A DNA stretch of 44,196 nucleotides from a virus (lineage: Duplodnaviria; Heunggongvirae; Uroviricota; Caudoviricetes): IMG/VR virus record IMGVR_UViG_2778261274_000007, positions 1-44,196 of that record; one strand, given 5' to 3'. Positions 5,892 through 6,703 of this stretch are shown one piece after another; positions within the stretch are counted from its first letter, which is position 1, and each line of letters starts with the position of its first letter. A program made the translations under genes and the position numbers. The notes under the pieces were generated by a model that was not told the origin of the DNA, did not search any database, and saw only the letters and a list, made by a program, of their open reading frames with translations.

Positions 5892-6326
5892 ATGTCCGGT
5901 AATATCTATACGCTGTACAAATCCCACTGTGAAAATGTTGGAAAGTATCGGGGCATTGAAATCAGTGGGGTAGTGTCATCAGTCGAAATAAGCAAAGTTG
6001 AATCAAGGGCAACATTACTTACTCTTTTGGACCTTGTCTTACATGAGCACCGGAAGAAATTCGGCACTCCCTATAATCAGTTGAATGGGAAAAAGGCTCT
6101 GGTTCACCTTATTCTGATGAAGCATCACTGGATGCCAAAACAGATTAATGAGATGAAATTTGATGAACTTCTTCTTTCAATTCAGGATGAACTCACACTT
6201 GATAAAATAAGCGTAACCGCCCAGAAATTTTTAGATTATCGAGACTGGAGATCACAAATTCATCACTTTGATGATTTTGACGAAAATGAATGGGATCCTA
6301 ATTTGTCTGCACAATATCTAAAGTAA
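5892..6326 (+). CDS. Hypothetical protein (144 aa), AT-rich moron in the lysogeny-expressed position
   Basis: ORF with AAGGA RBS 8 nt upstream; opposite strand to the early-left operon; no recognisable family. Confidence 0.5.
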   Translation: MSGNIYTLYKSHCENVGKYRGIEISGVVSSVEISKVESRATLLTLLDLVLHEHRKKFGTPYNQLNGKKALVHLILMKHHWMPKQINEMKFDELLLSIQDELTLDKISVTAQKFLDYRDWRSQIHHFDDFDENEWDPNLSAQYLK

Positions 6327-6504
6327 CATCCTGTGATAAAACCGTGATTTCCTGATCCAGTTTTTTTAAGGAGTCTATTGTTTCCTGTCGATAAGACAGC
6401 ACTTCACGAAGCTGGTTTATAGCTGCCAGCTTCTTTGTCATCCACTCATAAATTTCCTCATCTGTGTAGCCAGGCGCGACGATTTTGGGTTCTGTTTTGT
6501 GCAT
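6298..6504 (-). CDS. Hypothetical small protein (68 aa), first ORF downstream of PL
   Basis: ATG at 6504 preceded by GAGGAG; the ORF track's TTG start at 6519 is less likely; not Arg-rich. Confidence 0.4.
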   Translation of the reverse strand: MHKTEPKIVAPGYTDEEIYEWMTKKLAAINQLREVLSYRQETIDSLKKLDQEITVLSQDVTLDIVQTN

Positions 6505-6549
6505 TTCACATCTCCTCAAGTTATCAGTTACTTGTTGATGGGGACCAGA

Positions 6550-6563
6550 TTGTTAAAGAGCTA
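6550..6563 (-). promoter_or_regulatory. boxA-like element (minus-strand AGCTCTTTAACAA) in the PL leader
   Basis: Close match to the rrn/nut boxA consensus GCTCTTTAACAA; a short hairpin (CAAGT...ACTTG) lies just downstream. Confidence 0.3.
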
Positions 6564-6564
6564 A

Positions 6565-6586
6565 GCGTCCTGTAGGGCGCTTTTTT
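6565..6586 (+). terminator. Rho-independent terminator for the plus-strand 144-aa gene transcript
   Basis: 6-bp stem GCGTCC/GGGCGC (one G-U pair) followed by TTTTTT. Confidence 0.4.
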
Positions 6587-6671
6587 GTTGCTAACGAATC
6601 ATCCTGGACTTCATATGCCCCAGGCGGCTACTTCGTGGGCGTCCTGCCTGTTCGTTGTTTCGGTTGGGTAC

Positions 6672-6699
6672 ATTATGTATCTCAAAGGTACATTGTCAA
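6672..6699 (-). promoter_or_regulatory. PL-like early-left promoter with overlapping operator motifs
   Basis: Minus-strand -35 TTGACA (6699..6694), 16-nt spacer, -10 CATAAT (6677..6672); GGTACAT motifs overlap both elements. Confidence 0.5.
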
Positions 6700-6703
6700 G
6701 TAT

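Follow-up and report, generated by a model that had tools for sequence, protein, structure and literature searches.

A covarying 64-nucleotide leader RNA at the start of the early-left transcript of N-less lambdoid phages is a candidate for protein-independent antitermination

We analyzed the early-left leader of a prophage in the IMG/VR virus record IMGVR_UViG_2778261274_000007 (Caudoviricetes; the whole stretch of 44,196 nt is referred to here as the window), and found, near the start of the transcript, a 64-nt RNA that folds as a closed three-way junction. The fold of this element, its position, its modularity and its distribution among phages are shown by the comparisons described below. 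The prophage is an N-less lambdoid phage of the SfIV/SfV type, integrated at thrW, and the element lies between its early-left promoter, pL, and a boxA sequence. Of the parts of this leader, the 64-nt RNA is the best candidate for an antiterminator that acts without a dedicated protein. An earlier, sequence-only reading of this DNA had found the promoter and a boxA ahead of a first gene that does not resemble N, and had proposed that antitermination here uses a different factor or a cis-acting RNA, or that the small protein has another role. The option of a cis-acting RNA now has a covarying candidate, which lies just upstream of the boxA and hairpin that had been pointed to and is not either of them.

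The proposed RNA consists of a closing helix (P1) and two hairpins (P2 and P3) joined at a junction (Table 1). Its invariant loop and junction residues are GCCCACGAAGUAGC, GGCAUAYGAA and RUGA. In an alignment of 54 hand-picked sequences, 94.9% of the cells were paired, compared to 70.7% after shuffling. The covariation score was 0.618, compared to 0.179 for shuffled alignments (0 of 500 reached the observed value) and 0.016-0.131 for slid controls. A model-based alignment of 94 distinct sequences gave 95.2% paired cells versus 71.4% when shuffled, and a covariation score of 0.601 versus 0.173 (again 0 of 500), with slid controls at 0.012-0.120. Two-sided changes were found in 11 of the 14 pairs in the 94 sequences, some positions having four or five pair types. 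There were also G-U pairs, 21 of them at one P2 position, that are compatible only with the strand transcribed from pL. Because the G-U pairs are strand-specific and the helices covary, we conclude that the conserved feature is an RNA structure in the early-left transcript. When column pairs were ranked by mutual information, five of the proposed base pairs were among the top six, and no tertiary pair stood out in this analysis. The trinucleotide GGA is kept in the P2 loop despite changes in the neighboring bases, and a second conserved GGA lies at the boundary of P3 and J3/1. A likeness to the hammerhead or to purine riboswitches was considered and rejected, because neither the lengths nor the sequences of the junctions agree with those RNAs and the Rfam searches were negative.

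The element did not correspond to a known RNA family. At gathering thresholds, the only Rfam 15 match in the window was a tRNA. A permissive scan (E ≤ 10) of positions 5300-6800 gave no minus-strand match within 6593-6656, and a scan (E ≤ 1) of six other phage loci carrying the element gave no match to it. The anti-sRNAs AgvB and AsxR (RF02702 and RF02703) were tried as candidates and gave no match, even in leaders of the mEp237 type. The 64-nt RNA is undescribed in Rfam and in the searchable literature, including a full-text search with its core sequence, a coverage that does not take in the put-like RNAs of King 2011.

The element is found in many phages that otherwise differ. SfV and the window have in common the promoter and about 80 nt after it, followed by complete divergence and a different first open reading frame (ORF). 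A sensitive DNA search with the leader recovered only approximately 6591-6659 across phages with unrelated immunity regions and hosts. Besides SfIV and SfV, the element is thus present in SfII, Citrobacter phage phiNP, Klebsiella phage Kp4866-6, Pantoea phage AH07, Yersinia phages YeP1/2, Pectobacterium phage ZF40, the Salmonella phages ST64B, SEN34 and SPN3UB, the coliphages mEp237 and mEp460, Aeromonas phage pAEv1818, and the lytic T5-like Providencia phages PR1 and PSTCR5. The exact core 14-mer, GCCCACGAAGTAGC, retrieved more than 120 viral contigs, approximately 100 of which have the full element. When used on a genome collection the same 14-mer gave mostly chance matches, with only 5 genuine loci out of 120 (Kosakonia, Kluyvera, Leclercia and two others). 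Of 5426 complete E. coli genomes, 1504 carry a close variant of the 64-nt element, which is annotated in none of them. With a covariance model of the element (R1), the window copy scored 94.6 bits and was the only one in the window; each of 100 loci had exactly one copy.

The genomic context indicates a self-contained module near the start of an early transcript. In annotated phage records, the repressor gene is followed by the element and then by kil, recE or exonuclease genes, and in PR1 the element is in the terminal repeat, upstream of pre-early genes that include A2. A promoter matching at least 9 of 12 positions and ending 5-30 nt before P1 was found in 57 of 84 distinct upstream contexts, compared to 2.4% of random positions; from this spacing, the element should begin approximately 5-18 nt into the transcript. 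In the window, P1 starts 15 nt after the -10 sequence and the RNA spans approximately +10 to +73 of the predicted transcript. The mosaic joints between phages coincide exactly with both ends of P1. The first downstream ORFs fell into 33 unrelated clusters among 66 contexts, which argues that no partner gene travels with the element, and its presence in both lambdoid and lytic T5-like phages suggests a conserved host target.

Several loci had further features near the element or in its place. In the terminal repeat of PR1 (L009, 1492-1600), a TATACT promoter is followed by the element and, 9 nt on, by CGCTCTTTAAAAA. One subfamily (approximately 30 viral loci, including L007 and L008) has a conserved TTAACGCGCAG(C/T)AGG 5-20 nt downstream that does not resemble boxA. 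SPN3UB has the sRNA isrB (RF01386, 99 bits; L008, 2263-2350, minus strand) within its early-left operon, downstream of the element and encoded on the opposite strand. The Rac prophage of E. coli K-12 retains only the P1 arms, with the interior deleted (CCACCGAAGCCCGGAGGTGG; L257, approximately 6580-6600, minus strand), upstream of the sRNA KilS and kilR. Since Rac holds only this internally deleted remnant, transcript maps of K-12 are not usable for the element. In phage Ayreon (L255, 2040-2440) and an Stx2c phage (L256), pL and its operators are kept and a non-coding leader of approximately 400 nt replaces the element. This leader had no match to put or to Rfam and may be another candidate leader RNA.

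The position of the element is that of put, the RNA antiterminator of phage HK022, and we retrieved putL and putR of HK022 and the put RNAs of HK639, phiEt88, CobraSix and S9-5 for comparison. A covariance model (R2) was built from six put RNAs with the pairing from the cryo-EM structure (PMC9378689). R2 gave 93-103 bits for putL and 57.5 bits for putR of phiEt88, on which it was not trained. As with put in HK022 and in HK639, HK75 and phiEt88 (approximately 65-75 nt), the element folds right where the pL transcript begins, in a lambdoid phage that has no N. Both are self-contained, with no adjacent partner gene and with terminators downstream, and both occupy this slot in related mosaics, with similar transcript start regions of the CCAUCGAAAC type. 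Like the put of HK639, the element is present as a left copy only. The folds are different: put is V-shaped, with a pseudoknotted triplex stem I and a long stem II (PMC9378689), whereas the 64-nt RNA is a closed junction of P1 and two hairpins. The distributions also differ, with 24 phage records matching put compared to more than a quarter of E. coli genomes carrying the element. A homology of the two was considered on the basis of two shared strings, CGAAC..GGC and CAGGAUGA, and rejected, as both covariance models fail to connect them. The strings lie in variable, covarying helices of the 64-nt RNA, and we therefore regard them as coincidental. Read-through of terminators by put needs no protein factor and relies on the zinc-binding domain of the polymerase beta' subunit. 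The 64-nt RNA is not a member of the put family, yet it occupies the same slot. A more distant comparison is with the EAR RNA of Bacillus eps operons and other processive antiterminator RNAs, which are also cis-acting leader RNAs with no dedicated adjacent protein and a proposed target in the elongation complex, but are unrelated in sequence, size and host.

Transcription of the element in the window would start at pL, which matches the consensus at 11 of 12 positions and is the top-scoring site within 5000-8400. The sequence-only reading had placed this promoter directly after the cI terminator and had described GGTACAT motifs over it like those in the cI-cro region; promoter, terminator and motifs are all where it had put them. 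The motif (ATGTACC on the minus strand, GGTACAT on the plus strand) occurs seven times in 44 kb, on both strands, and three of the seven are within the immunity region. The two copies that overlap pL are probably repressor binding sites.

Downstream of the element is a hairpin followed by a boxA, whose sequence GCTCTTTAACAA has no other exact copy in the window. It matches the boxA consensus UGCUCUUUAACAA at 12 of 12 positions, closer than the near-consensus match that had been reported. With the next T (6549), it is identical at 13 of 13 positions to the boxA of the rrn leaders, a 13-mer that every one of the 5426 E. coli genomes carries, with a median of 7 copies; such an identity is expected by chance approximately 0.005 times per window. 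The hairpin and boxA form a portable unit of 50 nt, AGCAACAAAAAAGCGCCCTACAGGACGCTT[A/C]GCTCTTTAACAATCTGG; six distinct sequences come after it in different prophages, the 68-aa ORF of the window being only one of them. The boxA is kept as [A/C]GCTCTTTAACAA in the six contexts, with the flanking sequence differing immediately past AACAATCTGG. An ORF on the opposite strand ends 25-28 nt beyond the module in three sister contexts, and in the window the 144-aa gene of the ECs1072 family stops 223 nt from the hairpin. Because the hairpin is a textbook terminator on the plus strand and convergent ORFs end nearby, we conclude that it terminates convergent morons. The boxA is on the side of the hairpin that has no part in plus-strand termination. 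T5-like phages have an independent boxA-like sequence, CGCTCTTTAAAAA, 9 nt after the element. Most members of the element family do not have a boxA, and we therefore consider it an add-on rather than a constituent of the element.

The leader can be compared to two known arrangements that contain boxA. In the rrn leaders (boxB-boxA-boxC, bound by Nus factors and SuhB; boxA is also found upstream of CRISPR arrays and suhB), GCUCUUUAACAAU is identical, a hairpin lies directly 5' of boxA as boxB does, and boxA precedes a long untranslated transcript. The differences are that position 1 is A in the window (C in sister copies) and U in rrn, that the hairpin also serves as an opposite-strand terminator, and that there is no GU-rich boxC (UGUGUGGG-like) in the sequence 3' of the window boxA. 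Neither boxB nor boxC is strictly required in rrn. The nutL sites of lambda and P22 are in the same slot, between pL and the first early-left gene, and have a boxA; they differ in having a boxB-type hairpin 3' of boxA and an arginine-rich N protein. In the window, only a weak, A/U-rich hairpin of 5 bp with an 8-nt loop (6517-6534) lies 3' of boxA. This is the short hairpin that had been described as following boxA; the strong hairpin (6563-6582) precedes it. BoxA and Nus factors shield long untranslated transcripts from Rho (PMC7665894). By analogy with the rrn and CRISPR leaders, the window boxA would be a loading site for the Nus complex, through NusB and NusE, that counters Rho (PMC7665894).

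No N-like protein was found that could act on this leader. The 68-aa product of the first ORF has 2 arginines and 6 lysines, which bears out the earlier observation that it has no arginine-rich motif. It has no relative among solved structures. Searches of Pfam, PHROGs and NCBIfam, one of the checks proposed for the 68-aa protein, gave no antiterminator match for it or for any other early-left ORF. In all minus-strand frames of 2600-6700 there was one arginine-rich stretch, of 18 aa and out of frame inside a 121-aa gene, so that neither approach found an N-like ORF elsewhere in the early-left region. Across loci, the scan for arginine-rich ORFs was noisy; it detected the control, Nun of HK022, and otherwise gave scattered and mostly out-of-frame matches. 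Because the 68-aa ORF is one of at least six alternative sequences after the same leader, it is an accessory gene rather than the antiterminator.

With its layout, the operon needs protection against intrinsic as well as Rho-dependent termination. After the 68-aa ORF, approximately 870 nt (6297 to approximately 5427) are untranslated in the pL sense and are antisense to the moron, with the next gene at approximately 5426. The pL transcript must also cross the strong terminator of an sRNA region and a perfect-ended hairpin (Table 1). This 89-nt hairpin is also kept in SfV, Ayreon and Stx2c phages. The 3' part of the sRNA region, GCUGUGUGUAGUC and the 12-bp terminator, resembles KilS of K-12 Rac and the seed of RprA, and a 2026 preprint has linked STnc100 with PasD.

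We propose that the 64-nt RNA is a cis-acting antiterminator leader that works on the elongation complex with help from boxA and the Nus factors, an analogue of put with a different fold; in our judgment this has an even chance of being correct. The leader would then be made up of four independent mosaic modules: a repressed sigma-70 promoter, the 64-nt RNA, the hairpin with boxA, and the accessory 68-aa gene. The nascent RNA would present its invariant loops and junction residues to a conserved host machine, the likeliest docking target being elongating RNA polymerase near the RNA exit channel. It would stay bound in cis, so that the complex resists both the 6563-6582 hairpin and the strong 5561-5607 terminator, an action like that of HK022 put by a structurally unrelated RNA. 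BoxA would then recruit NusB/NusE and the Nus complex, and the approximately 870 nt of untranslated pL transcript would be shielded from Rho. Binding to polymerase, antitermination and recruitment of Nus factors by the pL leader are what we infer from this arrangement. Extending the proposal, the 64-nt RNA may represent a second class of self-sufficient, polymerase-modifying antiterminator, of an origin independent of put and much commoner than put, that lambdoid and lytic T5-like phages use to carry their first transcripts through terminators. We offer this broader view more tentatively, as somewhat less probable than an even chance.

Several results weigh against an antiterminator role. At E ≤ 10, the put model R2 matched neither the window leader nor any of six further copies of the element, and R1 gave no match in HK022. 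The predicted stability is unremarkable (z = -0.8 for a 77-nt stretch and -0.09 for the whole leader), although such folding z-scores were also uninformative for genuine put RNAs. Terminators downstream of the element numbered 1.0 per kb in the sense direction and 2.2 per kb antisense, a comparison that is not discriminating; the home-made counter is too permissive to serve as evidence. There is no second copy of the element in the pR operon, as judged by the R1 scan of the window, and boxA is missing from most of the family. In addition, Ayreon, cdtI and Stx2c phages have the same pL and downstream terminator with a different 400-nt leader and no element, which indicates that the element is dispensable or can be replaced by something else.

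Some of the evidence could be read in other ways. The element could be a nut-like recruitment site that needs an unrecognized phage or host protein in place of N, with boxA as the Nus part. In two independent lineages a boxA comes after the element, an arrangement that recalls the boxA and boxB of nut and the rrn leaders, the invariant loops resemble surfaces recognized by proteins, and a few loci have a small arginine-rich ORF within 600 nt. We regard this as unlikely, however, given the 33 clusters in 66 contexts with no conserved neighboring gene, the occurrence of the element in lambdoid and T5-like phages that otherwise share little, the many members without boxA, and the scattered, mostly out-of-frame nature of the arginine-rich matches. 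Being self-contained and located right at the 5' end, the element could instead serve the stability or processing of the pL transcript, guarding it against RNase E or RppH or directing a cleavage, and leave elongation unaffected. For protection alone a simple 5' hairpin would suffice, and the 17-nt loop and the junction are invariant from Aeromonas to T5-like phages, which implies specific recognition; a stability module thus seems quite unlikely.

A three-way junction whose junction residues and loops are conserved also resembles an aptamer, and the two conserved GGA sequences, a further point against an antiterminator, could indicate a protein ligand such as CsrA. The element would then be a sensor, either riboswitch-like or protein-titrating, that tunes early-left expression. 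GGA is a very short motif, though, and the sensor would have neither a conserved expression platform, the sequence after P1 being wholly different between phages, nor a nearby ribosome-binding site on which to act; we consider it improbable. The remaining alternative concerns boxA. If the hairpin module served only as a terminator for convergent morons, as its canonical plus-strand form and the opposite-strand ORF stops in three contexts would allow, then the match to boxA could be incidental and not a functional Nus site. We give this only a slim chance: for plus-strand transcripts the boxA side is upstream of the hairpin and takes no part in termination, the 13/13 identity to rrn would be a rare coincidence, and boxA is kept in six contexts up to the point where the flank diverges.

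Table 1. Features of the early-left region and their coordinates in the window
Feature	Position	Strand	Description
Three-way-junction leader RNA, 64 nt	6593-6656	-	Between pL and boxA; module in unrelated phages, with covariation
P1 helix, 6 bp	6656-6651 with 6598-6593	-	Closing helix of the 64-nt RNA
P2 helix	GGC 6648-6646 with GCC 6628-6626	-	Closes the invariant 17-nt loop AGGACGCCCACGAAGUA
P3 helix, 5 bp	CCUGG 6624-6620 with CCAGG 6607-6603	-	Loop GGCAUAUGAAGU; family loop pattern GGCAUAYGAA...
Junction J3/1	AUGA 6602-6599	-	Family consensus RUGA
pL promoter	6672-6699	-	-35 TTGACA 6699-6694, 16-nt spacer, -10 CATAAT 6677-6672; start predicted at approximately 6665 from spacing
Operator-like ATGTACC, two copies	6687-6693, 6667-6673	-	Overlap pL and flank the -10; third copy at 7492-7498, in the cI-cro region
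Hairpin AAGCGCCCUACAGGACGCUU	6563-6582	both	Plus strand: followed by TTTTTTG, canonical intrinsic terminator; pL sense: AAGCGCCCTACAGGACGCTT, just 5' of boxA
rrn-type boxA, A-GCUCUUUAACAAU	6549-6562	-	Exact 12-mer GCTCTTTAACAA at 6550-6561
68-aa ORF, MHKTEPK...	6504-6298	-	phrog_1744, label without function; Shine-Dalgarno sequence GAGGAG 6512-6517 beside the weak hairpin 6517-6534
Convergent moron gene, 144 aa	5892-6326	+	ECs1072 family, phrog_5286; SfIV_36 in SfIV; transcript would end at 6563-6582
STnc100/PasD/KilS-like sRNA region	5558-5781	-	RF02076, 43.4 bits (gathering threshold 47), E = 1e-7
Terminator, 12-bp stem	5561-5607	-	Ends the sRNA region; in the path of pL transcripts
Hairpin, 89 nt	5472-5560	-	Perfect 15-bp ends ACAAAACAGAGAAGA...TCTTCTCTGTTTTGT; separates the sRNA terminator from the next early-left gene
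cI repressor gene, 224 aa	6739-7413	-	S24 peptidase (Peptidase_S24, PF00717); labelled cI in SfV and SfIV
Intrinsic terminator of cI	6708-6727	-	8-bp stem and T-run; the SfV record annotates a terminator

The surroundings of the leader are those of a lambdoid prophage. The left end of the window has proA, a tRNA (1369-1441) and an integrase gene, followed by the prophage. Shigella phage SfIV is 97.9% identical to 5400-6760, and SfV, SfII, ST64B and others are identical in part. Rightward from 7504 are genes that, by family matches, are Cro-like and then CII(CP76)-like, and TGTAC palindromes are concentrated at 7431-7493. The 68-aa ORF and the 144-aa gene are convergent, with an overlap of 29 nt (6298-6326), and a plus-strand transcript of the moron would cross the whole 68-aa ORF antisense before reaching its terminator.

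How N-less lambdoid phages (SfV/SfIV, ST64B, Gifsy-like, mEp237-like and others) get early transcripts past terminators is largely unexplained, and put of HK022 has so far been treated as a rare curiosity. If our proposal is correct, the put slot also hosts a second leader RNA, unrelated to put and far more widespread, and control of polymerase by RNA alone would be common in phages. The element would provide a new polymerase-binding RNA for structural biology and a compact, portable part for the synthetic control of read-through. Approximately 28% of complete E. coli genomes would also gain an unannotated element, with Shigella serotype-converting phages and O157 prophages among its carriers.

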